NCBI GenBank assembly: GCA_964505975.1
Contig: CAZDLW010000002.1
Coordinates: forward strand, 2,915 to 66,914
Length of the DNA stretch: 64,000 bases
From: an uncultured Bifidobacteriaceae bacterium
GTDB lineage: Bacteria; Acidobacteriota; Vicinamibacteria; Vicinamibacterales; UBA2999
Reading direction: 5' to 3'
Program-made: the position numbers and the translations under genes
In this document: positions 503-29,358 of the stretch, in pieces
How positions within the stretch are numbered: position 1 is the stretch's first letter
Layout of the letters: the number at the start of each line of letters is the position of its first letter
Notes under the pieces: model-generated
What the model saw: only the letters and a program-made list of their open reading frames with translations
Told to the model about the DNA's origin: nothing
Databases searched by the model: none

Positions 503-518
503 CGCGTACCGAGGTTGC

Positions 519-8824: not shown

Positions 8825-8863
8825 AGAGGCCCGCCGAGGCAGCAGCGTCGCTGGCGCTCGGCA

Positions 8864-11925: not shown

Positions 11926-12295
11926 CGTGACACGCAGCGATTGGTGCAGCAACTGTGTGCGGCAGCCAGGAGCAACGCAGCCTGGCCCGGTTTCGCCTGT
12001 CTGAGTTGCAGCAGCGCTGCTGCCGCACGGTCGCGCAGCCCTCGACACACCGGAACGACGCGCGGGGCAGAGCGTACCTGCATCGGGTCATTGACACGGC
12101 GGGATCGCCAAGCCAGAATCTGCGTCTTCTGCAGGCGGGCGGCGGGATCCGGGAGCAGGAGCTCAGCAGTGCCAGGCAGACTCTCCAGCAGGCGGCGAAC
12201 GAGCGGGAGCGCCTGGCGGGACACGCCGCCGTGCGCGGTCCGCCGCACGTTCGACGGTTTCGATGCTGGTCGACATTCGACCGCGAGGTGCCCTC

Positions 12296-15199: not shown

Positions 15200-15239
15200 C
15201 AGCGGTGTGGGACGTCGCATTCATGGTGGAGACCAAGTC

Positions 15240-16907
15240 ATGTGGCATATGCGAATGATGGCCCTCGCGGGCGGCGCCCTCGCGGGAGCGACACTGGTGC
15301 TGGTGTTGCTCCAGTCACCGGCGGGCGCGCAGTCGGAGACCTGTCCCGGCGGGCGGTTCCTGCTGCTGACGAACGGACGCATCCACACGATGGACGCGCA
15401 GCGATCCGTCGTCTCGCGCGTGCGGATCGCGAACGGGAGGTTCGTCGAGGTGGGCGACGCCGCCAGCGACGCGGGCGGCTGCACTGACACGATCGACCTG
15501 CGCGGGCGCACGGTCGTCCCCGGGATGATCGATAACCACTTCCACGTGCAGCTGGTGGGGAGCCGGCCCGGGTACGAGACGCGCACGATCGAGACGGCGT
15601 TCTCGATCGCGGACGTGCAGCAAATCGTTCGCGAGCGGGCGCAAGAGGTTCCCGAGGGCGCCTTCATCACGGCGATCGGCGGGCTGCAGCCCCGGCAATT
15701 CGCGGAGAACCGCCTGCCGACGCTGGCGGAACTGGACGCGGCGGCGCCGCGCCATGCCGTATACATCCATTCCGGGTTCAACGGCCCCGCCGTGACGAAC
15801 ACGCTCGGCCGGAAGTTCTTCGACAGCAAAGGCGTGCCGGTGGGGGCGGACGGTTCCATCGCGCAGAACGACCCGACATGGGACGCGCTGGATGCGCTGC
15901 GCTCGGTCTGGACGCACGAGGATACCAAGCGGACGATGCAGCAGGTGTTCAGCTATTTCAACAGCGTGGGGCTGACGACGGTGCACTCGGTGCTGGGATC
16001 GCAGGAGCGCGGGCCAGCCCAGTACTTCGGGACGCGCGAACAACGGCCGATGATGGATCTGATGCGGGAGGACAAGCTCACGCTGCGGCTGCGGTTGTAC
16101 TTCAATACCGGCCCACGCGTGGACGGCAAGCCGGGGAACGGCACGGTGCGGGAGTTGGTCGATCACCAGCTGCCCGATCTCGGCAACGATATGGTGAAGG
16201 TGGCCGGCCTTGGCGAGCACATCGTGGACTGGCCGCTCGAGGGAGCGGTGCCGCTCGGGGAAGAGTATTACGAGTCGGTGCGGTTGCTGGCCGAGCGCGG
16301 GTGGCAACTGATGGAACACAGCTTCAACGACACGAACCACCGGACCCGTGCCGATATCTGGGAGCGGGTGCACCGCGAGGTTCCGATTACCGGCCTTCGC
16401 TGGTCCATCGACCACGTGTCGAGCATCGAGCCGGCGACCATCGAGCGGATGAAGAAACTGGGCGTCGGCGTGCGGGCTCACGGGTGGCGCGTGCTGGGCG
16501 GTGCGCCGGGGCCGCAACCGGCCGGCCCTCCCTACCGGCAGCTCCTGGACAGCGGAATTCGCGTGGGAACCGGGCTGGATGGCGCACAGGCGGCGCCGAT
16601 CAACCCGTGGCTGAACGTGTACTACATGGTGACCGGACGCAACGTGCGTGGGGAGCTGATCAATGACGGGCAGCAGATCTCGCGGGGGGAGGCGGTCTGG
16701 CTGTACACGGGCGCGAACGGCTGGTTTTCCCGTGAGGAGCACACGCTCGGCACGATCGAGCCGGGCCGGCACGCGGATCTCGTGGTGTTGAGTGCAAACG
16801 TGTTCGATCCGCAGGCGGTGCCCGACGAGGAGATCCGGCGCGTCCGCTCGGTGATGACCCTGCTGGGCGGAAGAATCGTGTACGGCAACGCCGAGGCGCT
16901 GCGGTAA
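15240..16907 (+). CDS. Amidohydrolase-family metallohydrolase (Amidohydro_3-like), secreted
   Basis: Signal peptide 'MMALAGGALAGATLVLVLLQSPAGAQ'. 'VVPGMIDNHFHV' is the HxH metal motif. The C-terminus 'GTIEPGRHADLVVLS' is typical of this family. Confidence 0.8.
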   Translation: MWHMRMMALAGGALAGATLVLVLLQSPAGAQSETCPGGRFLLLTNGRIHTMDAQRSVVSRVRIANGRFVEVGDAASDAGGCTDTIDLRGRTVVPGMIDNHFHVQLVGSRPGYETRTIETAFSIADVQQIVRERAQEVPEGAFITAIGGLQPRQFAENRLPTLAELDAAAPRHAVYIHSGFNGPAVTNTLGRKFFDSKGVPVGADGSIAQNDPTWDALDALRSVWTHEDTKRTMQQVFSYFNSVGLTTVHSVLGSQERGPAQYFGTREQRPMMDLMREDKLTLRLRLYFNTGPRVDGKPGNGTVRELVDHQLPDLGNDMVKVAGLGEHIVDWPLEGAVPLGEEYYESVRLLAERGWQLMEHSFNDTNHRTRADIWERVHREVPITGLRWSIDHVSSIEPATIERMKKLGVGVRAHGWRVLGGAPGPQPAGPPYRQLLDSGIRVGTGLDGAQAAPINPWLNVYYMVTGRNVRGELINDGQQISRGEAVWLYTGANGWFSREEHTLGTIEPGRHADLVVLSANVFDPQAVPDEEIRRVRSVMTLLGGRIVYGNAEALR

Positions 16908-16940
16908 ACCACGGGTCTCCTCGGGCGCCAGAGGACAGAT

Positions 16941-17720
16941 ATGGCACTCCGCCTCGCCTGCGATCTCGACGGCACGCTGGCCGACATGGAGAAGGCCTTA
17001 CAGCAGGAAGCCGAGCGTCTGTTCGGGCCTGATGTCGATCTGCGGGCGCGCGGGCACGTAGTGGCGGAGCGTGACGACGAAGGAGGGCACTTTCGGGCGG
17101 CGCCCGCCGACTCGGGGTCTCCCAGTGAGACGGAGTCCTCGTCCGATCAGGAGGGAGCGAGGCCACCGGCTGTCGAGTCACCTCATGCGCCCAGAAGGGC
17201 TTTGACGGACTCGCAACTTCGTTCGCTCTGGGCGCACGTCCGGGGGCTGGAGAACTTCTGGACGACGCTCGATGAGATCGAGCCAGGAGTCGTGGCGCAT
17301 CTGGCTCGGCTGGCGGCGGCGCACCGCTGGGAGGTGCTGTTCGTGACGCAGCGCCCATCGACAAATGGCGACACCGCGCAGCGGCAGTCGCAGCAGTGGC
17401 TCGTGCGGCATGGGTTCGAGTATCCCTCCGTCTATGTGATGAACGGTTCGCGCGGCAGATTGGCGGATGCGCTGGGACTGCATGCCGTCGTGGACGATCG
17501 CACTGAAAACTGCCTCGACGTGAAGACCGACTCGCGCGCGCGGCCCTTGCTGGTCTGGCGAGACGCCCCGGAAGCCGTGCCGCCGGCCCTCCCTGGTTTG
17601 GGGATCGACGTCGTCTTTTCGATGACCGACGCGTTGAGTGCCCTCGAAGCCATGACGCACACGATGAACAGGCCGGGCGGCTTGTTCGCCCGGATACGCC
17701 AGAAGATTGGTGCCTGGTAG
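16941..17720 (+). CDS. HAD-superfamily hydrolase-like protein (5'-nucleotidase-like) with an acidic/low-complexity insertion
   Basis: N-terminal 'LACDLDGTLAD' is a DxDGT HAD motif I. The later 'VLFVTQRPS...VVDDRTENCLD' is consistent with HAD motifs II-IV. Confidence 0.45.
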   Translation: MALRLACDLDGTLADMEKALQQEAERLFGPDVDLRARGHVVAERDDEGGHFRAAPADSGSPSETESSSDQEGARPPAVESPHAPRRALTDSQLRSLWAHVRGLENFWTTLDEIEPGVVAHLARLAAAHRWEVLFVTQRPSTNGDTAQRQSQQWLVRHGFEYPSVYVMNGSRGRLADALGLHAVVDDRTENCLDVKTDSRARPLLVWRDAPEAVPPALPGLGIDVVFSMTDALSALEAMTHTMNRPGGLFARIRQKIGAW

Positions 17721-17858
17721 CGCAACCTCCGACAAGCACCTCACCGCCCGTGACTGATATCGACGCTCAGTGGAGGACTGACGAGCACCGGCGCGGAGCA
17801 CGCCGCGAACAGGGAGCTGCGACTCGATGATACCCGCGAGAGAAGGCCCGGGCCCCAG

Positions 17859-18824
17859 ATGGCGAAGACCGGCAGAATCCTCGTAACCGGTGGCGCGGGA
17901 TTCATCGGCAGCCACCTGGTCGACGCCTTGCTGACGGAGGGGTGGCAGGTGGAGGTGGTCGACAATTTCGATCCCTTCTATGACGTGTCGACCAAGGAAG
18001 CCAACATCGCTTCGCATCGCCACCGCCCTGCGTACGCGTTGGTGAACGTGGACATCGCCGACTCTGACGCTCTCCGCGCACGCGTGTCGGGCACCTTCGA
18101 CGCGGTGGTGCACCTGGCGGCCAGGGCCGGCGTGCGTCCATCCATCGCCGATCCGCTCGCTTACCAACGTACGAATGTCAACGGGACCCAGAATCTGCTG
18201 GAGCTCGCTCGCGAGCGGGGCGTGCCGCGTTTCGTCTTTGCGTCCTCCAGTAGCGTCTACGGGATCAACCCGCGCGTGCCATGGAGTGAAGACGACCACG
18301 TGCTCAGACCCATCAGTCCGTACGCGAGCACCAAGGTAAGCGGCGAGCTGCTCGGCCATGTGTATGCACACTTGTACGGGATCCGGTTCATCGGTCTGCG
18401 ATTCTTCACGGTGTACGGGCCTCGTCAACGGCCGGACCTCGCCATTCACGCGTTTGCGAAGCGGATGCTCGCAGGACGACCCATTCCGGTGTTCGGGGAC
18501 GGAAGCACCAGGCGCGACTACACGTTCATCGACGACATCATCGTCGGGCTGCGGCGTGCCATCGACTACGACGGCTCCGGCTACGAGATTGTGAATCTGG
18601 GAAACAATCGGACGGTGAGTCTGAGCGAAATGGTCGCGCAGCTCGAACGGGCACTCGGCGTCGCCGCCATTGTCGATCGACTCCCCGAGCAGCCCGGCGA
18701 CGTGCCGCAGACATGGGCGCGCATCGACAAGGCCCGTGCGCTGTTTGATTATCGACCGCAGACGACGTTCGAGGAGGGACTAGCCGAGTTCGTCGAATGG
18801 CTTCGCTCGACAGGCAGCGTGTAG
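17859..18824 (+). CDS. NAD-dependent nucleotide-sugar epimerase/dehydratase (extended SDR; UDP-glucuronate 4-epimerase-like)
   Basis: 'ILVTGGAGFIGSHLVDAL' is the Rossmann motif. 'SPYASTKVSGE' is the YxxxK catalytic motif. 321 aa. Confidence 0.85.
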   Translation: MAKTGRILVTGGAGFIGSHLVDALLTEGWQVEVVDNFDPFYDVSTKEANIASHRHRPAYALVNVDIADSDALRARVSGTFDAVVHLAARAGVRPSIADPLAYQRTNVNGTQNLLELARERGVPRFVFASSSSVYGINPRVPWSEDDHVLRPISPYASTKVSGELLGHVYAHLYGIRFIGLRFFTVYGPRQRPDLAIHAFAKRMLAGRPIPVFGDGSTRRDYTFIDDIIVGLRRAIDYDGSGYEIVNLGNNRTVSLSEMVAQLERALGVAAIVDRLPEQPGDVPQTWARIDKARALFDYRPQTTFEEGLAEFVEWLRSTGSV

Positions 18825-18862
18825 CCACCCTGGTTCATTCGACGTTGGCAGCATGCCGCCGC

Positions 18863-18973: not shown

Positions 18974-20659
18974 TCACATCGTTCGAGAGAGTCGTTCGTC
19001 TCCGATGTTGTCGTACGCGGCGACGCTGGCAAGATGCGACGCGCTGATGTGCCGGTCGAGGACCCGTGCGCGACGGGCGGTTCTCACGAGTGCGACGAGT
19101 TGTTGCCGATCCGTGGCATGGGCGCTCGCCTGACGGAGTGTCAGCCGGCGGCGTCCGACTGCCGCGGCCAGTGCCTGGTCGAGCGTGCGCATCCGTTCAG
19201 CGCCGCTGCCCTGAAGGCGAGCGATTCCGGTGAAGTCGCCTTTGCCGAGAAGTGAGCCCACTTCGACGGATCCGACGACCACATCCTGCACCGGGACCAG
19301 GCCACCACCAAGGCCTCTCAGCGCACGATAGGTGAATGCCGCTCGCAGCACCTTGCCCAGCGCGATGCGGCCTTCGGCGCCCGCGTGCGTGGTCGCGCCC
19401 GAGGCCATCATGCGCAGTGCGGCTAGGGTGGTCGGCGCGACAACGCCCACGACGACGATTCGATGACCCGCGGCGGCGCGGAGTACTTCGTGCACCACGC
19501 CGGCTGGTTGTGGCGCGACGATGAGCAGCACGTCCGGAGCCTCGGCTGCTGCCAGCCTGATTGCATCTGCAGGGTTGCTGTCCGCGTCGAGCGCTCGTTG
19601 GCTGACGAACTCGCCGGTAAGGTCATGATCGGGAATGCTGCCCGGTGCCAAGGCGATGACGTAGCCGCCGCGCCGGCGGCCTGCGAAATCCGCAACCGCC
19701 GAAGCCAGCTCCGACATGTCCGTTTCAGTGGGTGCCGACACGACAATCAGGCCCTCGCCATCGCATGTCTCGCGAACCTGCCGGGGGATATGCTTGTGAA
19801 GGTGCTGCAGGGTTCGCTGGCGGTGGAACCGAAGCACAATCCCGGGACCGCAGCGATCCCTGAATGAACGACACGTGACTTCTCCAAGTTCCTCTGTCAG
19901 CAGGACCCAGTCGCCGTCTGTGCCGGCTCGCCAGCCGTTGCCCTCGCCGTTGGCAATCGTGGCGTTCAGTTGATCCAGCGTCGCAGCGTCGAGCGGCTCT
20001 GTGTCTAGCGGCTCTATCCGCTCGTTGATGCGCGCGGCCGCGGGACGTCCCGCCCGCAGGTATGCGGCCGTGGCTCCCCTGGCCATCGCACGGGCGATGA
20101 GTTCGGTCAGTTCCACTGGAGCTCCTTTGCCGCTCGAGGCGTCCACATGCTCGACACGGGTCGGCGACGTTCCTTGGGCGGCTGTAACCGAGCGTGTCGG
20201 TCCCGCGCTGTCATACAAGGATGACTGCGGCCCTGTCTCGAACGGAGCGACAGCGCTCTGGGGCATCAGACTCGCGCTGTGAGCTGGATCACCGGACTGT
20301 TCGTTCTGGGTTGTCGGGGGCGGAATGAGAACGGGGGCATCCGTGGTTTCCCGGACGTCGCGTCGCAGCTCGATGTAGAGCGCGTCGCTCTGCCGTGCGG
20401 CCATCGCGGTCAGTGCCCCCGTCGTTCCGGCGCCGGGCACGCTCTCCACGACGGTCCCGCCTTCCTGCAGCGTGTGCCGGCCGGCCTCTGACAGGACCTC
20501 CTGCGCGAGGGCGTCCAGTGCCGCACGCGTCAGCGTAGCCCTGGCTACGTCTTGTCTCTGGGATCCGACGAGCACGTGAGGTCTTTCGCCTTCCCGAAGC
20601 ACGAGGCGGTCACCGCCAACGCGCTCGAGCGCTGCCCAGAGGGAGGGAAGCACACTCAT
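18974..20659 (-). CDS. PilT/PilU-family protein with duplicated N-terminal domain and degenerate ATPase motifs (pseudo-ATPase)
   Basis: The core is collinear with PilT, but the P-loop position reads 'SAPTETDMS' and the Walker B region reads 'APDVLLIVAPQP'. The His-box region reads 'GHRIVVVGVVAPT'. The C-terminus 'RMRTLDQALAAAVGRRRLTLRQA' is PilT-like. Two PilT-N-like segments lie at aa ~1-100 and ~185-280. Confidence 0.7.
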   Translation of the reverse strand: MSVLPSLWAALERVGGDRLVLREGERPHVLVGSQRQDVARATLTRAALDALAQEVLSEAGRHTLQEGGTVVESVPGAGTTGALTAMAARQSDALYIELRRDVRETTDAPVLIPPPTTQNEQSGDPAHSASLMPQSAVAPFETGPQSSLYDSAGPTRSVTAAQGTSPTRVEHVDASSGKGAPVELTELIARAMARGATAAYLRAGRPAAARINERIEPLDTEPLDAATLDQLNATIANGEGNGWRAGTDGDWVLLTEELGEVTCRSFRDRCGPGIVLRFHRQRTLQHLHKHIPRQVRETCDGEGLIVVSAPTETDMSELASAVADFAGRRRGGYVIALAPGSIPDHDLTGEFVSQRALDADSNPADAIRLAAAEAPDVLLIVAPQPAGVVHEVLRAAAGHRIVVVGVVAPTTLAALRMMASGATTHAGAEGRIALGKVLRAAFTYRALRGLGGGLVPVQDVVVGSVEVGSLLGKGDFTGIARLQGSGAERMRTLDQALAAAVGRRRLTLRQASAHATDRQQLVALVRTARRARVLDRHISASHLASVAAYDNIGDERLSRTM

Positions 20660-21105
20660 CGATCACACTCCGGAAGCCTACATGGATCTTCGAACTGTAG
20701 AGCCGCCCGGAATAGAGGTCGTGGTGACACGGCATGCACAGAACAGCGAACCACCCGCGCACGGACGACGCGCCGCACTCCGTTGAAACGCAAGAAGAGG
20801 TCGACAACGCGCCCGGGGCACAGGCGTTGGGTGGTCTCTGTCAGGACGCCGGTAGCCGACAGATTGATGGTCTTGGCTTCGGCCGCTCCTGCGACAGTCA
20901 GGCGAAGATCCGCGGCGAATTCCTCCGGCGTCAGGCGCCGAGCCTGTCGGCGCTCAACCGGGTCGTCTTCGACAATCGTGGCCGGCACGACGACCGCGTC
21001 GTCACCGGGCGACACGGTTGCGGCTTGCCAGTCCGCCTCGAGGCGGGCGATGAGGTCATCGAGCCCGTCGGCCGGAGCCATCGTCATCTCGTCGGAGGAA
21101 GTCAT
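20656..21105 (-). CDS. PilZ-domain (c-di-GMP receptor-type) protein
   Basis: 'ERRQARRLT' is the RxxxR motif and 'INLSATGVL' is the (D/N)xSxxG motif, with normal PilZ spacing. Its stop overlaps the downstream PilT-like start as ATGA (20656-20659). Confidence 0.7.
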   Translation of the reverse strand: MTSSDEMTMAPADGLDDLIARLEADWQAATVSPGDDAVVVPATIVEDDPVERRQARRLTPEEFAADLRLTVAGAAEAKTINLSATGVLTETTQRLCPGRVVDLFLRFNGVRRVVRARVVRCSVHAVSPRPLFRAALQFEDPCRLPECDR

Positions 21106-21500
21106 GTCGTTGCTCCAGGTCGCCGAGGGTGCAACTGCCCTGCCGGTGGGCGGCGTCGCACCGGGTCATTCCCCCGTGCGCCCAAGCTCCGTGGAGTGCT
21201 CGGATTGGCGAGCAGATCGGGCTCGGCCTCTCATCCCCTTTGGGGAGAATTCTCGCCGCATGAGAGAGTCTGAAAAGTCCCAGGTTCTCAATCGGGAGGC
21301 AGTCGAAGATCTTCACCCGATACACCTGAAGCATCGCAACGGCGTGCAACCATGGGCAGGTTCTGTCATGGTGACCGATCCTGTGCCACGACGCATCGAA
21401 CGTGCGGTCGCGCCACGGCCATGTGCCTGCACAGGTTTGCGTCCCTGTGATAATCTCCCCCGGGCGACGTTCCCGTCTCCCCGGGGCCACGCCCCGATCC

Positions 21501-22880
21501 ATGCTGTCGAGAGTGACGCCGCTCGAAAGGGTAAGCGCCAGATTGATTGATGAGTTGCCCGGTTCATCGGCGGCCGCGCCCGGAGCGCGCGCCTCTCGGG
21601 GAACCGGGCCTGGCGATCCTTCGCAAGCGTGTGAAGCCAGCGCGTTTGCAAGGGCGGTGTGGGGGCGCTCCTGGGACTGGCTGTTCGCCCTTCGTCACCG
21701 ACTACGCGCGGAAGTGCAACTGGTCGATGACGAGCTGCGATTCCTGTTGCACGAGGCGCGGCAAGGCTCGGACCTCTCGCGGGTGTTGGTAGCGGGGGAG
21801 TCCGTGCTGCGCGCAGCTGCCTCTCTCAGCCTGCGAACTCGAACGACGCGCGTTACCACGGTCCGACAGGCACACGTGATCTGCGTTCCAATTGCGACGC
21901 GCAGCGGCGCGCGCGGGGCACTGCTCGTTGCGTGTGCTGCCAGCGACGAGGAGTTGACGGATGCCGATCGCGCGCGGTTGGAGCTCCTGGGAGGATGGTT
22001 GGCTGGCGCCGTCGAGGCACATCTCGACAGTCCCGCCTTGTCGGACATCGGCGTGTACAACGGCGTGCCGATGTGGCGACTGTTGTCCAGCGTCGCCGAA
22101 ACAGGGCATGATCGCGATCTGGTGGCGGCGTTCATCGAGGCGCTGGCGATTTGGCACGACCTCGATGTCACGTCCTACGTCGAGACGAAGCCCCAGCTGT
22201 TCATTCGAGACGTCTCGACCGGCGGTCGTCTCGCATCCGGTCGTCCGGTGTCTCTGCCGCGGGAGAGCGTCCCACGGTCGCTGGAGTTCCGCCGACTGCC
22301 CCGAGCTCACATGGACGAGCCGGACGCTCGAACCCATGAGGACGTTCTCGTCACCAGCGTGCGCGGAGCCGGGTCTCGGGCCTGGCTGCTCGTGTTGCCG
22401 GACTGTCTCGAGGTGCAGTGCGATGTTCGAGTGCTTGCGCTCTATGCCGCGATGCTCGACTTCGCCATCGCATTTGTCAGCGAGGCAGCCGTGCGGCGTG
22501 TGCAGGCCGACCTCTCGGAGTGCCTCGCAGCCGGGCTTCATTCGGACACAACCGCAAAGGTGGCAGTCGAGCGGGTGTGTCGCGCGGTGGGTGGTGCTGC
22601 CGGCCGCCTGGTCATCGAATCGCCATCGGGCGCAGTGCTGGTGGACGTCCAGGCGTTCGGCGATTCGAGGAGCGCGAAGGATCTGGACGGCGCGGGTCGG
22701 ACGCTGAGCGTCAGACGGAGCGGTCGTGGACGCGGTGGATTCACACTGGATCTGTGGCAACCGGGCCAACGGACGTTCACTCCACAGGACCGGCTTCTCG
22801 TCGAAGCGGTCGCCGCGCTGTTTCAGACAGGGGTAGCCGCTCATCCGATATTCCACACTCTCGCGAACCAGCCACGTTGA
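21501..22880 (+). CDS. Hypothetical protein built of three GAF-like modules with no output domain
   Basis: GAF-like C-terminal strands and helices recur three times: 'ICVPIATRSGARGALLVACAASDEELTDADRARLELLGGWLAGAVE', 'AWLLVLPDC...LALYAAMLDFAIAF' and 'GGFTLDLWQPGQRTFTPQDRLLVEAVAALF'. Start set at the ATG at 21501 and is uncertain. Confidence 0.5.
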   Translation: MLSRVTPLERVSARLIDELPGSSAAAPGARASRGTGPGDPSQACEASAFARAVWGRSWDWLFALRHRLRAEVQLVDDELRFLLHEARQGSDLSRVLVAGESVLRAAASLSLRTRTTRVTTVRQAHVICVPIATRSGARGALLVACAASDEELTDADRARLELLGGWLAGAVEAHLDSPALSDIGVYNGVPMWRLLSSVAETGHDRDLVAAFIEALAIWHDLDVTSYVETKPQLFIRDVSTGGRLASGRPVSLPRESVPRSLEFRRLPRAHMDEPDARTHEDVLVTSVRGAGSRAWLLVLPDCLEVQCDVRVLALYAAMLDFAIAFVSEAAVRRVQADLSECLAAGLHSDTTAKVAVERVCRAVGGAAGRLVIESPSGAVLVDVQAFGDSRSAKDLDGAGRTLSVRRSGRGRGGFTLDLWQPGQRTFTPQDRLLVEAVAALFQTGVAAHPIFHTLANQPR

Positions 22881-23123
22881 CATCCGCGTCGAGCCCCCGG
22901 CTGGTTGCCAGTCCAGGGTGGCTGTTTCGAAGACCCTGAAGTGTACGTTTGATTTGTCGCGGAAATTGCGGAGAAAGTCTGAATCGCCCGGCGCCTTTAC
23001 CCACCAACGACCAGACTTTTGCGAGTATCCTAAATCTTCAATGACGTCGATCCAGACTGCAATGATCGCGTAACTTTCGGAAGAGTCACTAGTTGCGATG
23101 GCAGACAAACATCTGCCGAAATA

Positions 23124-23139
23124 TGGCGACTTGATTGCA
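23124..23139 (+). promoter_or_regulatory. Candidate sigma-54 (-24/-12) promoter upstream of EBP gene 23316
   Basis: TGGCGAC-TTGA-TTGCA against the consensus TGGCACG-N4-TTGCW, with correct GG-N10-GC spacing. It lies in an AT-rich intergenic region about 177 nt upstream of the ATG. Confidence 0.4.
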
Positions 23140-23315
23140 GCTCCACAAGTAGACGCCGTCAAGGGTCGACTTGGCGGGTGTTCCCCCTGGGGTACGCGGG
23201 CCACTGCTCAACCTGACGGGAGAACGTATCTCGTGCTCGAAAGTTGACAAGTTCCGTCGGCTGACGAGAGCAGGGCGAGTACCGAGAACACTCTAATTGA
23301 AACGGTTGAGAGACC

Positions 23316-24434
23316 ATGATTGAGGCAGTTGCCGAGGGCGCTCGCATCCCCCCCCCGATGTCCCCGATGCGGCCGAAAGGCCACGTCCAGCTGACGGGCC
23401 GGAGCCCCGAGATTCTCGCGCTGGACGAGGAGATCTCGCGGGTCGCCCGCTCCGACGCGAAGGTGCTGATCACGGGCGAAAGCGGCGTCGGAAAAGAGAT
23501 CGTCGCACGGAGCATTCACACGCGTGGACCTCGTGCTGCCCATGTCTTTGCGCCCGTCAACTGCGCTGGCCTGCCCGAGACACTGCTCGAGTCGGAGCTG
23601 TTCGGGCACGTGAAGGGAAGTTTCACAGGAGCCTACCGCGACAAACCCGGCAAGCTCGAGACTGCCCACATGGGCACGATCTTCCTCGACGAGGTCGGCG
23701 AGATGACGCTGCGCATGCAGGGGCTCCTGCTGCGCTTCCTCGAGACGGGCGAGCTCCAGAAAGTCGGGGCGGACGGAAGCGGGCGAATCGTCAACGTGCG
23801 AGTCGTGGCTGCGACCAATCGCGATCTCAGGGAGATGATCCGGCAGGGAAGCTTCCGGGAGGATCTGTTCTACCGCCTCAACGTGATCCACATTGTCGTG
23901 CCGCCTCTTCGCACACGGCGGCAGGACATCCCGGTGCTCATCGAACAGTTTTTGGCGCAGTTCGCGCACGCGAACCGGACTTCCATTGAAGCGGTCTCCC
24001 CGGATGCCATGAAGGCGCTGATGGAGTACTCGTGGCCCGGCAATGTCCGTGAGCTCGAGAACGTCATTGAGAGGCTGGTCGTCACCGTACAGGGTGCGCG
24101 GATCGAATACGAACATCTTTCGGCAGAGATCCGTGCGCAGGATTCAATCTCGTTCAGGCCGAAGCGTGAGCGTCGGCGGACTGTTGCGGACGACCTGTAC
24201 AAGCGGATGACCGAGCAGCACGAATCGTTCTGGGCGACTGTCTATCCGCTCTTCATGGACCGGGAGATCACGCGCGCGAACGTGCGCGAGGTCGTGCGCC
24301 GTGGTCTCGAGGAGGCGCGCGGCAACTACAAGATCGTTGCGCGGCTATTCAATATGGAAGCGCGCGATTACAAGCGCTTTCTCAACTTCCTTCGCAAACA
24401 CGACTGTCAGGTGCCGTTCAAGGAGTATCGCTAG
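23316..24434 (+). CDS. Sigma-54-dependent transcriptional activator lacking an N-terminal sensory domain (AAA+ plus variant C-terminal HTH)
   Basis: 'VLITGESGVGKEIVARSIH' is Walker A, 'GSFTGA' is the sigma-54 contact loop and 'GTIFLDEVGEM' is Walker B. 'WPGNVRELENV' is also present. Only about 25 aa precede the AAA+ core. The C-terminus is 'GNYKIVARLFNMEARDYKRFLNFLRKH'. Confidence 0.85.
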   Translation: MIEAVAEGARIPPPMSPMRPKGHVQLTGRSPEILALDEEISRVARSDAKVLITGESGVGKEIVARSIHTRGPRAAHVFAPVNCAGLPETLLESELFGHVKGSFTGAYRDKPGKLETAHMGTIFLDEVGEMTLRMQGLLLRFLETGELQKVGADGSGRIVNVRVVAATNRDLREMIRQGSFREDLFYRLNVIHIVVPPLRTRRQDIPVLIEQFLAQFAHANRTSIEAVSPDAMKALMEYSWPGNVRELENVIERLVVTVQGARIEYEHLSAEIRAQDSISFRPKRERRRTVADDLYKRMTEQHESFWATVYPLFMDREITRANVREVVRRGLEEARGNYKIVARLFNMEARDYKRFLNFLRKHDCQVPFKEYR

Positions 24435-24707: not shown

Positions 24708-27095
24708 ATGATGCAATACCGATCCAACGGCGTGCGGTCAATCGCGCGCGCGGCTGTCTGTGTGACACTGGTGCTTGCCCCCGCTCATGCGGCGCATGCT
24801 GACGCGATCGCGCTGATGTGGGACGCCAGTACCGATGTCAACGTCGCTGGATACGTCGTATATGTCGGGACCGAGTCGGGGACGTACGTGCAGAATTTCA
24901 ACGTCGCCAATGCAACCAGTTTCACGTTCCAGAACGCTGTTGCAGGACAGCAGTACTGCTTTGCCGTCTCCGCGTACGCGGACGGGCCGATCGAGGGGCC
25001 AAAATCGCCTGCGGTGTGCGGATACAGCAATGCGCCGCCCACACTCGTAAACCCGGGCAACCAGACGAGCGTTGTCGGGCAGCAGGCTGGGTTGCAGCTC
25101 GCCGGAACGGATCCGTACGGTGATCCACTCACGTACAGCGCCACTGGATTGCCACCGGGTCTCTCGGTGGTTCCCACGACCGGCTTCGTCTCGGGCACGG
25201 CCACGACCGCTGGAACGTTCAATGTGACTGCCGTCGTGTCGGATGGCGTGCTGAGTGCCGTGCAGTCGTTCGTCTGGACGATCCAGACGGGGTTGCCCGC
25301 GGCGGCGGTGCTCGTGAGCCCGTCTGGGTCCCTGTCGACGACGACGCCGGCGTTCGTGTGGCATGCCGTGGCCGGTGCGACGAGATACCGGTTGTGGGTG
25401 GACGATGCCAGCACCATCGACCCGCGCATCCAAGTCGACTACACGCCGGCACAGGCAGGATGTGCCTCTGGCTCCGGCAGTTGTCAGGTGACACCCGGCG
25501 TGGCCCTTGCTGTGGGTCCGGGCACGTGGTCGATCCGTGCGGCAAGTGGGGCCGGCGACGGCCCCTGGAGTGGCGCGCGTGATTTCGTCGTGCCCGATCG
25601 CACACCGCCCGTTGTTGCCATCACGTCACCGGTGAGTGGTGCAAGCCTCACCACCACGAACAGCAGCATCAGCCTCGCCGGCACGGCCTCGGATGACGTG
25701 CAGGTGACCCAGGTGATCTGGACGAACAGCAAAGGTGGCGGTGGAACGGCGACAGGGACCTCGAATTGGAACATCGCGTCGGTTCCGCTCCAGATTGGGA
25801 CGAACGCGATCACCATCACGGCGCGGGATGCTGGCGGCAATACGGCACTGGCCGTGCTCACTGTCCATCGCGCCGACGTCCGTATCCCGACAGTCACGAT
25901 CACGTCTCCCACGATGGCACCCGCTCACGTGACAACGGCAAGTCAGGTCGCGATCGCGGGAATGGCAAGTTCTACCGCAGGGGTGACGCACGTGACGTGG
26001 ACGAACGCTGCCGGTGGTTCCGGCACGGCCGTCGGGAACACGCAGTGGAACGTCCCCTCGGTCCCGCTGCAGGTCGGGAACAACGTCATCACCGTGATGG
26101 CACACGACGCTGCGGGTCGGACCATGCTTGCCGCGCTGACCGTGACGCGTACGGGTGCTCAGGGGAACGGCCCCCGGCCCACAGTGGTCATCACGGCGCC
26201 AACGCTGGCAGACACCTGGGAGACCCAGGCGCGCGTGATCACTGTCGCCGGAACGACCGCCGGCAACGGCGGCATCACTGAGGTCACATGGGTGACGGAC
26301 CGTGGTCACAGCGGGATGGCCATGGGCACGTCGTCGTGGAACGCAGCCGGTATCACACTCGAGCCGGGAGCGAACGTCATTACGGTGACCGCTCGGGACG
26401 CTGCTGGAATCACGGCCAGCGATACGCTGATGGTGAACTACCGCGCACAGACCGGCGCTGGCGTGTTCGGTCGATCCGCGACCCCAGCCCTGGCGGCTCC
26501 TCAGGGTGCCACTTCCACGAGTGACATACGAACGGCGGTTCCCAGGCAGATGACGCCGCCTCCCCAAGCCACGACCGCGGGGGCTCAAGGCGCGCAACCG
26601 AAAGCCGCCGACTCTACGCTCGTGAGGCAGGGTGGCGAACAGCGAAGTGCCAGCCCGACGTGGGTTGGTCCGGTCGGTGGTGGCGCCTCGATCACGACTG
26701 ACGCGCCTCCGTCGGCGCCGACGCGAACACTGAGGCCACCGGAGACCGTCCGCCAGCCGGATGGGACCAGTGAGGTTGATGCACTGCCAGAAGTCGGGAC
26801 GGACGGGACACCTGGAGACGAGCCCACGATCACTGTGGCGGCGCCAAGGGCCGGTCACGTCCATGTGACCGACGCGGCCACCGTGACATTGGCTGGCTCA
26901 GGGAGCGAGAAGATACGCGTGATCCGATGGGTGTCAGATCGGGGCGGCAGCGGCGTCGCCGCAGGAACGACTGTGTGGCAGATTCCAGACGTTCAACTCG
27001 AGGCTGGCGTCAATGTCATCGATGTGACCGCCGAAAGTGTCGATGGCCGGACGAGTCGAAGGCAGGTGCTGATCCGGTACGAGCCGAGCCAGTAA
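24708..27095 (+). CDS. Secreted multi-domain surface/adhesin-like protein (FN3, cadherin-like 'putative Ig' domain, four Ig-like repeats)
   Basis: Signal peptide 'AAVCVTLVLAPAHAAHA' and an FN3-like 'VAGYVVYVGTESGTY...YCFAVSAY'. 'GDPLTYSATGLPPGLSVVPTTGFVSGTATTAGTFNVTAVVSDG' is a He_PIG/dystroglycan-type Ig domain. Repeated 'PTVxITSP...W..P.VPLQ.G.N.ITV.A.DAAG' units follow. Confidence 0.8.
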   Translation: MMQYRSNGVRSIARAAVCVTLVLAPAHAAHADAIALMWDASTDVNVAGYVVYVGTESGTYVQNFNVANATSFTFQNAVAGQQYCFAVSAYADGPIEGPKSPAVCGYSNAPPTLVNPGNQTSVVGQQAGLQLAGTDPYGDPLTYSATGLPPGLSVVPTTGFVSGTATTAGTFNVTAVVSDGVLSAVQSFVWTIQTGLPAAAVLVSPSGSLSTTTPAFVWHAVAGATRYRLWVDDASTIDPRIQVDYTPAQAGCASGSGSCQVTPGVALAVGPGTWSIRAASGAGDGPWSGARDFVVPDRTPPVVAITSPVSGASLTTTNSSISLAGTASDDVQVTQVIWTNSKGGGGTATGTSNWNIASVPLQIGTNAITITARDAGGNTALAVLTVHRADVRIPTVTITSPTMAPAHVTTASQVAIAGMASSTAGVTHVTWTNAAGGSGTAVGNTQWNVPSVPLQVGNNVITVMAHDAAGRTMLAALTVTRTGAQGNGPRPTVVITAPTLADTWETQARVITVAGTTAGNGGITEVTWVTDRGHSGMAMGTSSWNAAGITLEPGANVITVTARDAAGITASDTLMVNYRAQTGAGVFGRSATPALAAPQGATSTSDIRTAVPRQMTPPPQATTAGAQGAQPKAADSTLVRQGGEQRSASPTWVGPVGGGASITTDAPPSAPTRTLRPPETVRQPDGTSEVDALPEVGTDGTPGDEPTITVAAPRAGHVHVTDAATVTLAGSGSEKIRVIRWVSDRGGSGVAAGTTVWQIPDVQLEAGVNVIDVTAESVDGRTSRRQVLIRYEPSQ
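25605..26441 (+). repeat. Three tandem ~88-aa Ig-like coding repeats (aa 300-388, 394-481, 491-578; period 94-97 aa)
   Basis: Hand alignment of the units starting PPVVAITSPVSG / PTVTITSPTMAP / PTVVITAPTLAD. The shared core is 'TxVxWTN..GGxGTAxGTxxWNxxxVPLQxGxNxITxxAxDAAGxT'. Confidence 0.75.
26823..27080 (+). repeat. Fourth, more divergent Ig-like repeat, separated by a 127-aa Pro/Thr/Ala/Gly-rich linker
   Basis: 'PTITVAAPRAGHVHV...IRWVSDRGGSGVAAGTTVWQIPDVQLEAGVNVIDVTAESVDGRT' aligns to repeats 1-3. The linker spans aa 579-705 (nt 26442-26822). Confidence 0.7.
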
Positions 27096-27142
27096 GGAAT
27101 GAGGTCCATGCACTGACGCGCGCATCACAGAACACAACTCAG

Positions 27143-27158
27143 CGGTACGTTTGTTGCC
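27143..27158 (+). promoter_or_regulatory. Candidate sigma-54 promoter upstream of the GAF-GGDEF gene
   Basis: cGGTACG-TTTG-TTGCc against TGGCACG-N4-TTGCW, with GG-N10-GC spacing. It lies 48 nt after the upstream stop in an AT-rich gap. A 7-bp hairpin (27168-27186) follows it. Confidence 0.4.
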
Positions 27159-27406
27159 ATGCCCTCTCGACTGACGGCTTCAGTCGGAAGGATAGAGTTG
27201 AGTGTAATCTGCAGAAATTTCAGGATGCGGCGATAATGATCGCCCCAAAACCAGGAATTTCTGGAGAAAATCTGCCCATCGGCGAACTTCGTTCGACGAA
27301 TTCGTCAACAAATCAATTTGAGTCTCCATTTCCTGTCTCCATTTCCATTCTGACCCCGAAGCAAGCGGCACAGCTTGGGACCGCACATGCAGTCGCGACC
27401 CCTGCG

Positions 27407-28783
27407 ATGCGACCGGACGAGCGCGTGCAGATGGTGGTTTCGCGTCTTGCCGAGATTGTGGGAGTCGCGGTGGCGTTCGTCGGCCGACGCGGCGAGACAT
27501 GGACCATCCTTGCGGAGTCGCCCAGTGGCGGGTTGCCGTTCTCGTCAGGGGCCGTACCGCGTGCTTTCATCCGTACGGCTGAGGCGCTCGGCACCGGTGT
27601 CACCGCCTGGCCCTGCCAGGACCGCGAGTGGACGCTGGTCGGATTGACAAGGAAACCGGATTCGCCCGTCGTGCTCGTACTCGAAAACGACTGGACGCTC
27701 TGTGCGTCGGCTCTCGCAGATCTCGGGCGCTCGTTGCTCTCGGGAAGTACGCAACCAATCGAGTGGTTCCCTCCTGAGGCCGGTATTGCGGCGCACACTC
27801 TGACGCGGGCGCTGGCGGAGAGCGGCGGGTTGAGGGACACGTGCGAGACGGTGCTGCGCCACGTCGTTCGCGCCGTCCCCAGCCGACTTGGTGCGATCGC
27901 CCTTCCGACGCCACACGGCGACCTGTCAGTGGTCGCTACGCACGGGTACCCGCTCGCCCTGGTGGAGCATCTCCGCATCCCCCCCGGCTCTGGAGTCATT
28001 GGGGCGGTATTCCAGTCGGGTTCGCCGATGGTTGTCGCGGACGTCACCCAGGTCTCTGCGATCCGGCGCAAGCGGCATCGTTATCGAACGGGCTCGTTCG
28101 TCGCGATGCCCATCACGGCTGAAGCCGGAGTTCTCGGCGTCGTCTGTCTCACCGATCGGGTGGATGATGGTGCGTTCTCGCTCGAACAAGTAGGAACGCT
28201 GCGCCTGCTGCTGATATCAGCCGGAATGGCGTTGGAGCGGGAGCGGGCCCGACGGCAGGCTCACGCGTATGCGCAGGCCGCGATCGTCGACCCCGTGAGC
28301 ACGCTCTTCAACAGGCGCTACTTCGAAATGCGCCTCGACGAGGAACTGCAACGGGCCGCACGGCAGGGAACAGACGTGGCGCTGCTGATGATCGACATCG
28401 ACGAGTTCAAAGGGATCAACGACACCTTCGGCCACGTAACTGGGGACACCGTGATCAAGGATGTCGCACAGTTGCTGCGCGGGTCCGTCCGCGTCTTCGA
28501 CGTCTGCGCGCGATACGGCGGCGAGGAGTTCTCGGTGGTCATGCCGGGCAGCAGCGCGGAAAGCGCGGCATTGATTGCCGAACGCATCCGCCAGCGGATA
28601 GCCGCGTACCGACCGGCAGATCACCGGTTGCGCGATCTTCGGGTGACGGCCAGCCTTGGTGTCGCGAAGTCATGGGCGGGTGTAACCGCCCTGGACCTGA
28701 TCGAGCGTGCTGACCGAGCGCTGTATGCGGCCAAGCGCGCGGGCAGCAATCGAGTGGTGGTCAGCGGGTCAGCGGACCAGTAG
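27407..28783 (+). CDS. Diguanylate cyclase with N-terminal GAF-like modules (GAF-GGDEF), intact active site and I-site
   Basis: 'RYGGEEFSVVMPG' is the GGEEF active site. 'RVFD' lies five residues upstream and forms the RxxD inhibition site. 'IDIDEFKGINDTFGH' is present, and the GAF segment is 'GSGVIGAVFQSGSPMVVADV...SFVAMPITAEAGVLGVVCL'. Start moved to the ATG at 27407. The in-frame stretch 27236-27406 has GC3 of about 46% by hand count and looks non-coding. Confidence 0.85.
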   Translation: MRPDERVQMVVSRLAEIVGVAVAFVGRRGETWTILAESPSGGLPFSSGAVPRAFIRTAEALGTGVTAWPCQDREWTLVGLTRKPDSPVVLVLENDWTLCASALADLGRSLLSGSTQPIEWFPPEAGIAAHTLTRALAESGGLRDTCETVLRHVVRAVPSRLGAIALPTPHGDLSVVATHGYPLALVEHLRIPPGSGVIGAVFQSGSPMVVADVTQVSAIRRKRHRYRTGSFVAMPITAEAGVLGVVCLTDRVDDGAFSLEQVGTLRLLLISAGMALERERARRQAHAYAQAAIVDPVSTLFNRRYFEMRLDEELQRAARQGTDVALLMIDIDEFKGINDTFGHVTGDTVIKDVAQLLRGSVRVFDVCARYGGEEFSVVMPGSSAESAALIAERIRQRIAAYRPADHRLRDLRVTASLGVAKSWAGVTALDLIERADRALYAAKRAGSNRVVVSGSADQ

Positions 28784-29114: not shown

Positions 29115-29358
29115 GCGTTCCGATGTACCAGGACTCGTGCCAGATGCGGGGGCGGCGTAGTGACTTGGGCTAAGCTGTTGGTGAGACGAAATTTGTGCGT
29201 GCAGACCCGAACCTGCGCGTATCCACCGACACGGGGAAATCGCAAAATTGTAATAATTCGCCCGACTTTTTGTGATTTTCTTGTTGAGTTTCTTCTGCTT
29301 CGTACGGCAGACTATCGTCTCTCCCATCTACAAGCATTGCTACTACTCAGCATCTAAA

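Follow-up and report, generated by a model that had tools for sequence, protein, structure and literature searches.

What can a protein with the fold of the PilT motor still do when its motifs for using ATP are gone, and what follows from the joining of its gene to one for a PilZ protein? The question is raised by two genes on the minus strand of a 64-kb stretch of DNA from a soil acidobacterium, here called the window (64,000 nucleotides in all). Both open reading frames lie where the first-pass annotation had placed them, all the peptide strings that it quoted are present in the translation, and the stop codon of the PilZ gene overlaps the start codon of the pseudo-ATPase gene in an ATGA that is visible in the DNA. 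The genes and their overlap are as follows.

18974-20659 (-): gene for the PilT-like pseudo-ATPase, 561 aa; open reading frame encoding an N-domain (N1), a disordered linker, a second N-domain (N2), a RecA-like C-domain and a C-terminal helix
20656-21105 (-): gene for the PilZ protein (PilZ149), 149 aa; open reading frame encoding a conserved N-terminal helix, a Pro-rich linker and a PilZ domain
20656-20659 (-): ATGA stop/start overlap of 4 bp, a site of translational coupling, read in the sequence as gatcgATGAgtg

The window sequence has been seen as DNA in the soil metagenomes of two studies, and a transcript search listed it in no RNA run.

The likeness of the longer protein to PilT and PilU, which had been described as collinearity and which might have been spurious, lies far above chance, as family profile, solved PDB chains and Foldseek agree. 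The TIGR01420 profile aligns to the 561-aa protein over positions 2-342 of 343 (E=2.9e-21), the PilT chain 2ewv matches residues 182-530 in a HMMER comparison with solved PilT chains (E=2.1e-17), and a Foldseek search with the AF2 model (pLDDT 78) finds its best matches in PilU and PilT (E~1e-22, TM 0.63-0.69 over the whole target). The TIGR01420 score of 76.1 bits falls below the curated family cutoff of 319.1 bits, and the Pfam domain T2SSE (PF00437) has no match in the protein even at E<=1. Four parts can be told apart.

20351-20659 (-): N1, aa 1-103, an extra PilT N-terminal PAS-like domain by predicted fold, with many invariant columns
20114-20350 (-): linker, aa 104-182, of low complexity and variable length, predicted to be disordered (pLDDT 30-34)
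19805-20113 (-): N2, aa 183-285, at the canonical position of the PilT N-domain and aligned to PilT residues ~2-105
19070-19804 (-): RecA-like C-terminal domain, aa 286-530, in which every catalytic motif has been replaced

The C-domain superimposes on that of Aquifex PilT (2eyu) with a TM of 0.84 and an rmsd of 2.9 A. Two PilT-N-like segments had been proposed, and the predicted structure bears them out at aa 1-103 and 183-280: N1 modelled in isolation reaches a pLDDT of 88, the top 30 PDB matches to its fold are all PilT or PilU (TMq 0.75-0.84, rmsd 1.7-2.6 A), and N1 and N2 have the same order of secondary-structure elements in the AF2 model. At the level of sequence profiles, hhalign gives a weak match between N1 and N2 that is in register (E=0.024), and the N1 profile finds no significant match among PDB sequences or in Pfam, so that the duplication can be demonstrated by predicted structure alone. 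N1 ranks among the two parts of the protein with the strongest constraint (dN/dS 0.05-0.10), while the linker, with a dN/dS of 0.14-0.53, differs in length across the family, whose proteins range from 533 to 696 aa.

All the signatures of catalysis have been replaced in this PilT-like frame. The motifs were placed by HMMER alignment to solved PilT chains, and their conservation was counted over 120 family proteins.

19709-19753 (-): degenerate Walker A, aa 303-317, GLIVVSAPTETDMSE where PilT has GLILVTGPTGSGKST
19634-19663 (-): degenerate Asp box, aa 333-342, YVIALAPGSI where PilT has HIITIEDPIE
19505-19537 (-): degenerate Walker B, aa 375-385, PDVLLIVAPQP where PilT has PDVIFVGEMRD
19427-19468 (-): degenerate His box, aa 398-411, GHRIVVVGVVAPTT

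The GPTGSGKS of PilT has become APTETDMS in the 561-aa protein, and the position of the Walker A lysine is held across the family by V (112 proteins), M (3), A (2), L (1) or T (1), in a P-loop region that now carries conserved acidic residues (E312 in 117/120, E316 in 114/120). In the Asp box, IEDPIE is changed to LAPGSI, with a family-wide replacement of E by Q in 112/120 and of D by R in 114/120. The catalytic glutamate of Walker B is replaced by G in 116 proteins, A in three and P in one. The His box, GH..LVFGTLHT in PilT, has turned into GHRIVVVGVVAP, with VVAP in the window protein; its second histidine is A in 119 of the 120 and G in the remaining one, and the first is not conserved, with G in 110/120. 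The loss of Walker A, Asp box, Walker B glutamate and His box that the first-pass annotation had read from a single protein is thus fixed in 120/120, and a search for an intact Walker A elsewhere in the protein ([AG]xxxxGK[ST]) found none throughout all 120. With a P-loop that has lost its lysine and glycines and become acidic, and with the Asp box, the Walker B glutamate and the His box gone, the 561-aa protein is predicted to have lost canonical ATP binding and hydrolysis.

A remodelled pocket might still bind a nucleotide, either ATP or c-di-GMP, in which case the protein would be more than a pure scaffold. The pocket-lining residues D376, R355 and R368 and the GRxRGG segment at 327-332 are indeed invariant, and the substituted loop is conserved rather than random (SAPTEADVE). 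Against this, besides the missing Walker A pattern, stand the hydrophobic residue at the lysine position, the two conserved acidic residues of the loop, which should repel phosphates, and the disappearance of the catalytic Glu and His. The c-di-GMP-binding motif of MshEN domains, 24 residues long (RLGxx[LVI][LVI]xxG[LVI][LVI]xxxxLxxxLxxQ), was likewise found in 0/268 proteins examined. Residual nucleotide binding is therefore considered very improbable.

Loss of catalysis on this scale raises the question of whether the gene is simply decaying. If it were a pseudogene or a mis-called open reading frame, its PilT likeness would be a relic and the ATGA overlap an accident. Reading frames are interrupted in the linker at three related loci (L014, L016 and L017), and these interruptions are confined to the low-complexity linker in a single MAG assembly series, which makes assembly errors the probable cause. 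Intact full-length open reading frames are found in >100 sequence clusters, dN/dS is about 0.1, the substituted motifs are themselves conserved, and so are the start and the overlap. In two unsaturated pairs, dN/dS was 0.06-0.10 for N1, 0.08-0.12 for the C-domain and 0.14-0.31 for the linker. The full-length clusters, the conserved substituted motifs and the dN/dS values together refute the pseudogene reading, to which we assign practically no probability. Catalytic residues absent from 120/120 proteins combined with low dN/dS in the folded domains mean that the pseudo-ATPase is under purifying selection and not in decay.

The place of the dead proteins becomes clearer from their relatives. 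A profile search returned 271 clusters at 50% identity (E<=1e-30), and the best 150 of these comprise members with an intact Walker A, members with a K->R variant of it and fully dead members, the dead clade. The intact members (representatives P0157, P0160, P0162, P0163 and P0181) share the architecture of the window protein: the dead-clade profile of N1 detects this domain in them, and a long linker leads from it to a core like that of PilT. They match the window protein at 190-275 bits, compared with 76 bits for the canonical PilT/PilU profile, the two figures coming from different searches. They differ in that they keep GPRxSGK[ST], ITIE and an acidic Walker B, are positive for Pfam T2SSE and are longer, with a median of 740 aa as opposed to 560; some of them have K->R in Walker A. 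Since relatives with an intact Walker A share N1, the duplication of the N-domain extends beyond the dead clade, and this clade falls within a wider family of PilT-like proteins with duplicated N-domains, newly described here. Like the dead clade, the intact members lie outside pilus gene clusters. No PilZ149-like gene was found near 4/4 intact relatives searched by DNA, and a fifth is without a PilZ call; two other conserved neighbours of ~140 aa, with no function assigned, flank 4/4 intact relatives whose DNA was read. As PilZ149 occurs with the dead clade and is missing from the intact relatives, partnering with PilZ tracks the loss of the motifs.

This partnership is well preserved. PilZ149 lies directly upstream of the pseudo-ATPase gene, next to it or overlapping it, in 21 distinct loci of Vicinamibacterales-type Acidobacteriota MAGs; the ATGA overlap is present in 17/21, the genes abut in two, and spacers of 5-6 nt separate them in the other two. 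Orthologs with 37-88% identity stand upstream of every PilZ-linked gene of the dead clade. Three elements of the protein are conserved.

20935-20952 (-): c-di-GMP-binding motif RRxxxR, R52-R57, RRQARR, read in the sequence
20848-20865 (-): c-di-GMP-binding motif [D/N]xSxxG, N81-G86, NLSATG, read in the sequence
21025-21069 (-): N-terminal helix motif L[DE]xL[IF]AxLE, aa ~13-27, a candidate docking element

The PilZ motifs had been reported as intact, and so they are: R52, R53 and R57 as well as N81, S83 and G86 are invariant in 18/18 aligned orthologs, both motifs are also kept in L019, L020 and L022, and in total they are kept in all 21 orthologs read, of 22. The Pfam gathering score of PF07238 is passed by a small margin (25.7 bits against 22.5, aa 51-139), with orthologs at 24.1-24.9 bits, and a search of PDB sequences with the PilZ149 profile brought no solved PilZ within reach. 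By its motifs, PilZ149 is predicted to be a canonical c-di-GMP receptor. L15, L18, L22 and E23 of its helix do not vary among 18 orthologs, and a variable Pro-rich spacer follows them; this helix may serve to dock the protein.

The reading that we favour is that the two genes probably form a conserved two-protein module, a c-di-GMP-gated non-catalytic scaffold. It is supported by the loss of motifs in 120/120 proteins, the purifying selection, the fold of N1 and the 21 PilZ-linked loci. The first-pass annotation had read the pair as a hexameric-ATPase scaffold repurposed as a c-di-GMP signalling adaptor, and each part of that reading open to computational checking was borne out and gained strength from the comparison of relatives. 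A precedent also counts in favour of the scaffold, as ATPase-deficient, nucleotide-free PilB acts in signalling in M. xanthus (PMC5544727). Several observations count against the module: the PilZ scores in Pfam are barely over threshold (24-26 bits against 22.5); a dead subclade of the P0149 type (locus L021) was found without a PilZ149 partner, which implies that the pseudo-ATPase is able to function without it; and searches for a sigma-54 promoter upstream of the operon and for a riboswitch, detailed below, revealed no element that would tie the pair to its neighbours.

To place the module, its surroundings must be considered as well. The first-pass annotation had missed that the pair sits within a larger regulatory locus that is itself conserved. 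Beyond the pair lie genes of the opposite strand.

21402-22880 (+): GAFunk, a GAF-like protein of 492 aa and the divergent neighbour of the pair; GAF_3 E=1.8e-5, below GA
23316-24434 (+): sigma-54 activator EBP1; Sigma54_activat E=4e-64, AAA+ core from residue 27, no receiver-domain match
26927-28783 (+): GAF-GGDEF diguanylate cyclase; GGDEF E=3.8e-45, GAF_2 E=2e-15; mechanical open reading frame, with the true start probably near 27.3 kb
29272-30561 (+): second sigma-54 activator EBP2; Sigma54_activat E=1.3e-63, 73-85% identical in relatives

The usual neighbours of the pair are GAF-GGDEF, PilZ and two sigma-54 activator genes. The GAF-GGDEF gene is conserved in related loci, and EBP1 is 82-86% identical in those of the main clade. 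At L019, L020 and the loci of the main clade a GAFunk homolog stands next to the pair in divergent orientation, and L021 and L022 have none, which makes GAFunk a frequent and not an obligate partner. A second small PilZ gene (PilZ103) and a small response regulator, both present in the loci of relatives, are absent from the window, whose locus has lost them. No gene of a pilus or secretion machine had been noticed nearby, and none is present among the window's open reading frames scanned against Pfam; about 25 related loci are equally free of pilus genes. The neighbourhood of c-di-GMP and sigma-54 signalling genes without pilus genes is a further point in favour of a signalling scaffold. The window has no FimX-like GGDEF-EAL gene next to the pair, and neither the pair nor GAFunk matches a PADLOC defence-system profile.

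This setting invites the explanation that the pair belongs to a self-contained c-di-GMP/sigma-54 circuit unrelated to pili, in which it acts on EBP1, EBP2 or GAFunk and might sequester or release the activators or the GAF protein upon c-di-GMP. The order GAFunk-(PilZ103)-EBP1-GGDEF-EBP2 stands divergently adjacent in nearly all main-clade loci. In relatives, EBP1, in which no receiver domain is seen, is overlapped by the small PilZ gene, so that at this locus a PilZ protein is paired twice with a protein of ring-ATPase fold. Even the dead subclade without PilZ still abuts a gene for an RR-PAS-GGDEF-EAL protein and a kinase. Synteny alone is not interaction, however, and the loss of PilZ103 and the response regulator from the window, together with the absence of GAFunk at L021 and L022, weakens the case. 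No -24/-12 sigma-54 promoter occurs in the whole window at <=1 mismatch and none upstream of the operon in 18 loci, and between 17.5 and 32 kb no riboswitch or other RNA family was found apart from one sub-threshold chance match; any regulatory link to the neighbours is therefore putative, and action within such a circuit is judged unlikely. A wider version of this idea would make the N1-linker-PilT-like proteins an unrecognised PilT/VirB11 branch unrelated to pili and with small partners of its own, whose dead clade was exapted, through the co-translated PilZ, as a c-di-GMP-gated regulator of the sigma-54 circuit. We hold this to be a doubtful proposal; if true, a motor fold would have been turned into a switch of transcription signalling.

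The target may also lie outside the locus. The dead PilT-like protein could mimic a motor and so regulate a genuine type IV pilus motor, or a related one, encoded elsewhere, either by joining the motor hexamer or by letting N1 or N2 occupy a docking surface on the C-domain of PilT/PilB or on the PilC/PilM platform; through PilZ149, such inhibition or recruitment would come under the control of c-di-GMP. In PilT hexamers, the N-domain packs against the C-domain of the adjoining subunit, and N1 repeats just this N-domain, tethered and highly conserved, in a protein whose best fold matches come from the PilT/PilU family only. PilZ-type proteins are also known as cofactors of pilus ATPases (PMC8389850, PMC11461919, review PMC11656802). 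The lack of pilus genes in the window and the related loci speaks against a mimic, as do the intact relatives, which are likewise orphans outside pilus clusters, and the AIRNLIRE motif of PilT, which is not conserved: the aligned segment reads EVGSLLGK and is variable within the dead clade. Regulation of a distant motor is thus regarded as possible but somewhat unlikely.

For the c-di-GMP-gated scaffold, a mechanism can be outlined. Both proteins would be made together from one coupled message, and PilZ149 and the dead PilT-like scaffold, putatively a stoichiometric pair of which the scaffold may be hexameric, would form a complex. c-di-GMP, plausibly from the neighbouring GAF-GGDEF cyclase, would bind PilZ149, which in its bound form could alter how the scaffold engages a target protein, via N1, its oligomeric state or both. 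The output of such an adaptor would be protein binding and not mechanical work, with the sigma-54 activators of the locus, its GAF protein or, at another place in the genome, a genuine motor of the PilT/PilB type as candidate targets.

These results suggest that the fold of a motor now serves as part of a signalling system. To our knowledge, the motors of the PilT family are seen as machines that cannot work without ATP, and we know of c-di-GMP control for active motors only, either through the N-domains of MshE/PilB or through PilZ/FimX cofactors. In the dead pair, nature has provided a clean test of the tasks that a secretion-ATPase scaffold can perform without ATP, and the intact, K->R and dead members together let the steps in the evolution of a pseudo-enzyme be followed. 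A sizeable uncharacterised family is thereby exposed and a conserved c-di-GMP/sigma-54 regulatory locus identified in Vicinamibacteria, a lineage abundant in soil that the literature searched mentions only in passing alongside c-di-GMP or type IV pili. Neither a PilT clade devoid of the P-loop nor a PilZ-PilT pair was found described in the same literature.

Among known systems, PilT/PilU (TIGR01420; PF00437; PDB 2ewv, 3jvv, 6ojx, 9n32) has the same two-domain fold and order and shares the PD of the Walker B strand, where D376 is invariant, the GGG loop and (M/R)TLD. The 561-aa protein differs from it in being without catalytic motifs and a conserved AIRNLIRE, in scoring below family cutoffs, in its added N-domain, disordered linker and C-terminal helix, and in its location outside a pilus cluster. 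The pilus systems of X. citri and P. aeruginosa likewise combine a small PilZ protein with a PilT/GspE-superfamily protein and a c-di-GMP signal. In X. citri, the ATPase is an active assembly motor within a pilus system, the PilZ protein is without c-di-GMP-binding motifs and it is FimX that senses c-di-GMP, whereas PilZ149 has canonical motifs, its partner is dead and PilT-like, the two genes are coupled and no pilus genes are nearby. The contact in X. citri PilB-PilZ-FimX is made by PilZ binding to the N-terminal domain of the ATPase (PMC8389850), and in P. aeruginosa PilB is under the control of PilZ/PlzR (PMC11461919). In the MshEN-domain ATPases MshE and PilB, which bind c-di-GMP (PMC4624772), a secretion-superfamily ATPase fold has also been made c-di-GMP-responsive, there by means of an extra N-terminal module; here, by contrast, N1 has the PilT N-domain fold, and c-di-GMP sensing would be delegated to a separate PilZ protein. 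A parallel in signalling without ATP hydrolysis by a pilus-ATPase fold is M. xanthus PilB, of which the nucleotide-free form is the signalling state, with the difference that this is a laboratory mutant or an alternative state of an active motor, while the loss of catalysis in the dead clade is natural, ancient and fixed.

The two genes under study lie on the minus strand of the window, and all peptide strings quoted in the first-pass annotation are found in the ORF translations.

20656-21105, minus strand: PilZ149, a 149-aa PilZ protein (ORF call)
18974-20659, minus strand: the pseudo-ATPase, a 561-aa PilT-like protein (ORF call)

The junction reads gat cgA TGA gtg on the minus strand, with the claimed overlap of the PilZ149 stop codon TGA and the pseudo-ATPase start codon ATG visible as ATGA at 20656-20659, and GGAG stands about 8-9 nt ahead of the start codon in both genes. 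The window sequence is found again in soil metagenomes of two studies. No RNA-seq evidence was found for it; no riboswitch was seen in 17.5-32 kb and no defence-system profile match for the pair or the neighbouring GAF-like protein, and no sigma-54 promoter precedes the PilZ149/pseudo-ATPase operon in any locus examined.

The large protein has no T2SSE match in Pfam, even at E ≤ 1. Its proposed collinearity with PilT and PilU is borne out by the NCBIfam model TIGR01420 (PilT/PilU), of which profile positions 2-342 of 343 align with residues 184-519 (E=2.9e-21), and by phmmer against PDB sequences, which returns only PilT and PilU chains, covering residues 182-530 (2ewv, E=2.1e-17; 3jvu, E=2.4e-15; PilU 9n32 also matched). 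The AlphaFold2 model (pLDDT 78, with a 40-sequence alignment as input) consists of confident blocks at residues 1-103 and 183-550 with a disordered linker (104-182) between them. In the Foldseek comparison with the PDB, PilU and PilT hexamer subunits rank first (E~1e-22, TM 0.63-0.69), followed lower down by DotB, PilB/PilF and GspE, and the Aquifex PilT C-domain alone reaches a TM of 0.84. In the alignments to PDB chains substituted residues face the PilT motifs, confirming that all ATPase motifs are degenerate.

Motifs of PilT and of the window protein in PDB-chain alignments
Walker A: PilT GPTGSGKS; window protein APTETDMS
Asp box: PilT IEDPIE; window protein LAPGSI
Walker B: PilT PDVIFVGEMRD; window protein PDVLLIVAPQP
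His box: PilT GH--LVFGTLHT; window protein GHRIVVVGVVAP
AIRNLIRE motif: PilT AIRNLIRE; window protein EVGSLLGK

The protein shares the PilT/PilU fold but fails the curated score (76 bits on TIGR01420 against a family cutoff of 319), the catalytic motifs, the AIRNLIRE motif and the pilus context, as no pilus or secretion-machine protein is present among the window ORFs scanned against Pfam, in agreement with the first reading. It should not be classed as a PilT/PilU ATPase, the label given to such proteins by JGI automatic names.

The first database search returned at least 170 relatives of 533-696 aa, one of them 74% and the others 39-48% identical to the window protein, and none with a precomputed Pfam domain. 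Among the best 120 of these relatives, the Walker A Lys position holds V in 112 (M in 3, A in 2, L and T in 1 each), the first Walker A Gly position A in 118 (S in 2), the catalytic Glu position G in 116 (A in 3, P in 1) and the second His position of the His box A in 119 (G in 1). The Asp-box E is replaced by Q in 112/120 and the D by R in 114/120, and acidic residues are kept in the substituted loop (E312 in 117/120, E316 in 114/120). An intact Walker A elsewhere in the protein had been considered, and [AG]xxxxGK[ST] occurs nowhere in any of the 120 sequences. The substituted motifs are conserved in their own right, with the consensus GLVVVSAPTEADVES, PDILLVTGPQTE and GGRLVIVAVVAPTT. Selection can be read from the two pairs of loci with unsaturated dS, for which dN/dS is reliable; N1 denotes the extra N-terminal PilT-type domain (aa 1-103) and N2 the N-domain in canonical position (aa 183-285).

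dN/dS by region
Window vs L019: N1 0.10, N2 0.16, C-domain 0.12, linker 0.31
L003 vs L012: N1 0.06, N2 0.14, C-domain 0.08, linker 0.14

Constraint in the two pairs is strongest on N1 and the C-domain. The family is maintained under purifying selection with its motif loss fixed, and a decaying gene is ruled out by the conserved substituted motifs together with the low dN/dS. In three MAG loci, all from one MFD-named assembly series, the frame is broken inside the low-complexity linker and resumed in another (L014 10360-10743, L016 10297-10765, L017 10294-10644); these breaks probably reflect misassembly of GC-rich repeat sequence, not real pseudogenes.

The two PilT-N-like segments claimed earlier are confirmed by predicted structure, the sequence evidence being weak: hhalign aligns residues 1-105 with 180-290 in register at E=0.024, and an N1 profile has no significant match among PDB sequences or in Pfam. 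Modelled by itself (pLDDT 88), N1 has the predicted element order of N2 (helix, three strands, two helices, three strands), and its top 30 PDB matches are all PilT or PilU (query-normalised TM 0.75-0.84, rmsd 1.7-2.6 Å, ~100 residues). Since the C-domain-only PilT entry 2eyu is absent among the 50 matches listed, the modelled N1 presumably matches the PilT N-domain. The MshEN c-di-GMP motif is not present.

An exhaustive profile search for the wider family gives 271 representative clusters (E ≤ 1e-30). In the core-profile alignment of the best 150 of the 271, all representatives above ~280 bits are motif-dead, and the majority of those at ~275 bits or lower retain GPRxSGK[ST], ITIE and an acidic Walker B (VIEDLR). 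Lower-scoring relatives still have N1 at the N-terminus and the long linker, with totals of 550-1236 aa, and some show Walker A K->R or other partial losses. On the intact branch, P0178, P0199, P0201, P0222 and P0168 carry K->R (GSGRST) or GSDLST in Walker A with the other motifs kept. Judged from these sequences, the wider family may have undergone more than one loss or weakening of catalysis. As an N1 core is common to the dead clade (GGxxLVLRxGExPHV) and the intact relatives (dGdALVmHVGEkPYV), the N-domain duplication is shared by both and probably arose before catalysis was lost.

Five intact relatives match Pfam T2SSE and are encoded away from pilus clusters. None of the four with readable DNA has a PilZ149-like gene, and the fifth carries no PilZ call; PilZ partnering tracks motif loss in this sample. 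In the four loci with readable DNA, intact relatives are flanked by two other conserved proteins of ~140 aa (L023 5554-5982 and 8215-8643, with equivalents in L024, L025 and L026), neither of which has a Pfam annotation on record or occurs in the window or the dead-clade loci. One reads WSGEG...RVEDAPATRSEADYNFISNE...PPYQTRGYKLVELVRIYE, the other VRQR...FTVFTP...EDYIEL...LTEEDVL...PFVER, and with the intact relative they may form an uncharacterised three-gene system.

PilZ149 passes the Pfam PilZ threshold (25.7 bits vs 22.5, residues 51-139; three orthologs, 24.1-24.9 bits), and R52-R53-x-x-x-R57 and N81-x-S83-x-x-G86 are invariant among 18 aligned orthologs, so the motifs described as intact are so; in sequence, PilZ149 qualifies as a c-di-GMP-binding PilZ protein. 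An N-terminal motif, L[DE]xL[IF]AxLE, is likewise invariant among the 18, with a variable Pro-rich spacer between it and the PilZ domain. Counting the window, 21 distinct loci have a PilZ149 ortholog immediately ahead of the pseudo-ATPase gene (ATGA junction in 17, abutting in 2, a spacer of 5-6 nt in 2). They include the loci of P0121 and P0131, two remote members of the dead clade, whose PilZ partners share 37-63% identity with PilZ149 over aligned parts. The dead subclade of the SAPFAEDVAA type (P0149, at locus L021) has no such partner. Beside P0149, a separate 244-aa gene (L021 11704-12438, minus strand) matches the pseudo-ATPase C-domain only (37% identity to aa 284-526), and the end of an RR-PAS-GGDEF-EAL gene (8139-10232, minus strand) overlaps the pseudo-ATPase gene end, with a histidine kinase next.

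A scan of GTDB species genomes gives 15 loci; 14 belong to MAGs that carry the label Acidobacteriota, Vicinamibacterales or Vicinamibacteria, and the remaining one is labelled 'uncultured bacterium' only. Main-clade loci nearly all have a conserved gene set flanking the pair divergently: a small response regulator, a 570-600-aa GAF-like protein (GAFunk), a 103-aa PilZ protein (PilZ103) overlapping the receiver-less sigma-54 activator EBP1, a GAF-GGDEF cyclase and a second sigma-54 activator, EBP2. The window members are as follows.

21402-22880: GAFunk
23316-24434: EBP1
ending at 28783: GAF-GGDEF
29272-30561: EBP2

PilZ103 and the response regulator have no tblastn match in the window, which leaves a 436-bp gap ahead of EBP1 (22881-23315). 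In most relatives PilZ103 overlaps the EBP1 start and a 120-aa stand-alone response regulator adjoins PilZ149 (for comparison, L001 4022-4333 and 6867-7229); through this overlap the relatives' locus holds two pairs, each a PilZ and a ring-ATPase-fold protein. Main-clade GAFunk (L001 4918-6624; L003 2706-4505) extends further at its C-terminus, and the added part faintly matches a GGDEF domain. In it 'EGEIGLL' stands where the GGDEF signature might be expected, and this sequence suggests a degenerate cyclase or receptor. Window GAFunk (492 aa) stops short of the extension.

Four sigma-54-activator-type genes lie inside 27 kb of the window (7712-8824, 23316-24434, 29272-30561, 32339-33919). The first may be degenerate, because its AAA+ domain scores only 53 bits; the last is NtrC-type with a receiver domain, and a sigma-70 gene, a hybrid kinase and a GAF-SpoIIE phosphatase come next (34.6-40 kb). 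TGGCAC-N5-TTGCW occurs nowhere in the 64-kb window at ≤1 mismatch. In relatives SIS-Dus-NusG-SurA-Mfd directly follows the pseudo-ATPase gene. In the window ~11 kb (7700-18830) separates Dus from it, with sigma-54-activator-like, Uma2 endonuclease-like, SSF symporter, NT5C-like and NAD epimerase genes, a 576-aa ORF and a 978-aa protein that resembles an outer-membrane receptor, and the SIS gene is found at the opposite flank of the locus, beyond EBP2 (30565-31293). Between EBP1 and GAF-GGDEF, 24708-27095 encodes a 795-aa protein with Ig-like, He_PIG, Big_7 and fn3 repeats, possibly a sigma-54-controlled surface protein; a related, longer gene occupies the same place in L016 (~170-5060), and most relatives are without one.

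The analysis establishes the fold, a motif loss that is fixed, purifying selection on the gene, PilZ motifs of canonical form, conservation of the coupling, and a neighbourhood of c-di-GMP and sigma-54 genes. In the mechanism proposed here PilZ149 and the dead scaffold would form a complex, and c-di-GMP bound by PilZ149 would alter the scaffold's engagement of a target, via the tethered N1 or the oligomeric state, so that the output of the module would be binding rather than work. The target may be the sigma-54 activators or the GAF protein of the locus, as synteny favours, or a true PilT/PilB-type motor or intact paralogue, as fold mimicry favours. The earlier interpretation, a hexameric-ATPase scaffold repurposed as a c-di-GMP signalling adaptor, is supported as far as sequence and predicted structure reach, and the adaptor function is a proposal.

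Known systems offer two points of comparison: in X. citri the PilB N-terminal domain is the docking site of PilZ (PMC8389850), and in M. xanthus EPS production is signalled by ATPase-deficient, nucleotide-free PilB (PMC5544727). Neither a P-loop-less PilT clade nor a PilZ-PilT gene pair nor this locus was found described in the full-text literature searched, and the combination is rated as a PilT-family pseudo-enzyme joined with a PilZ adaptor.
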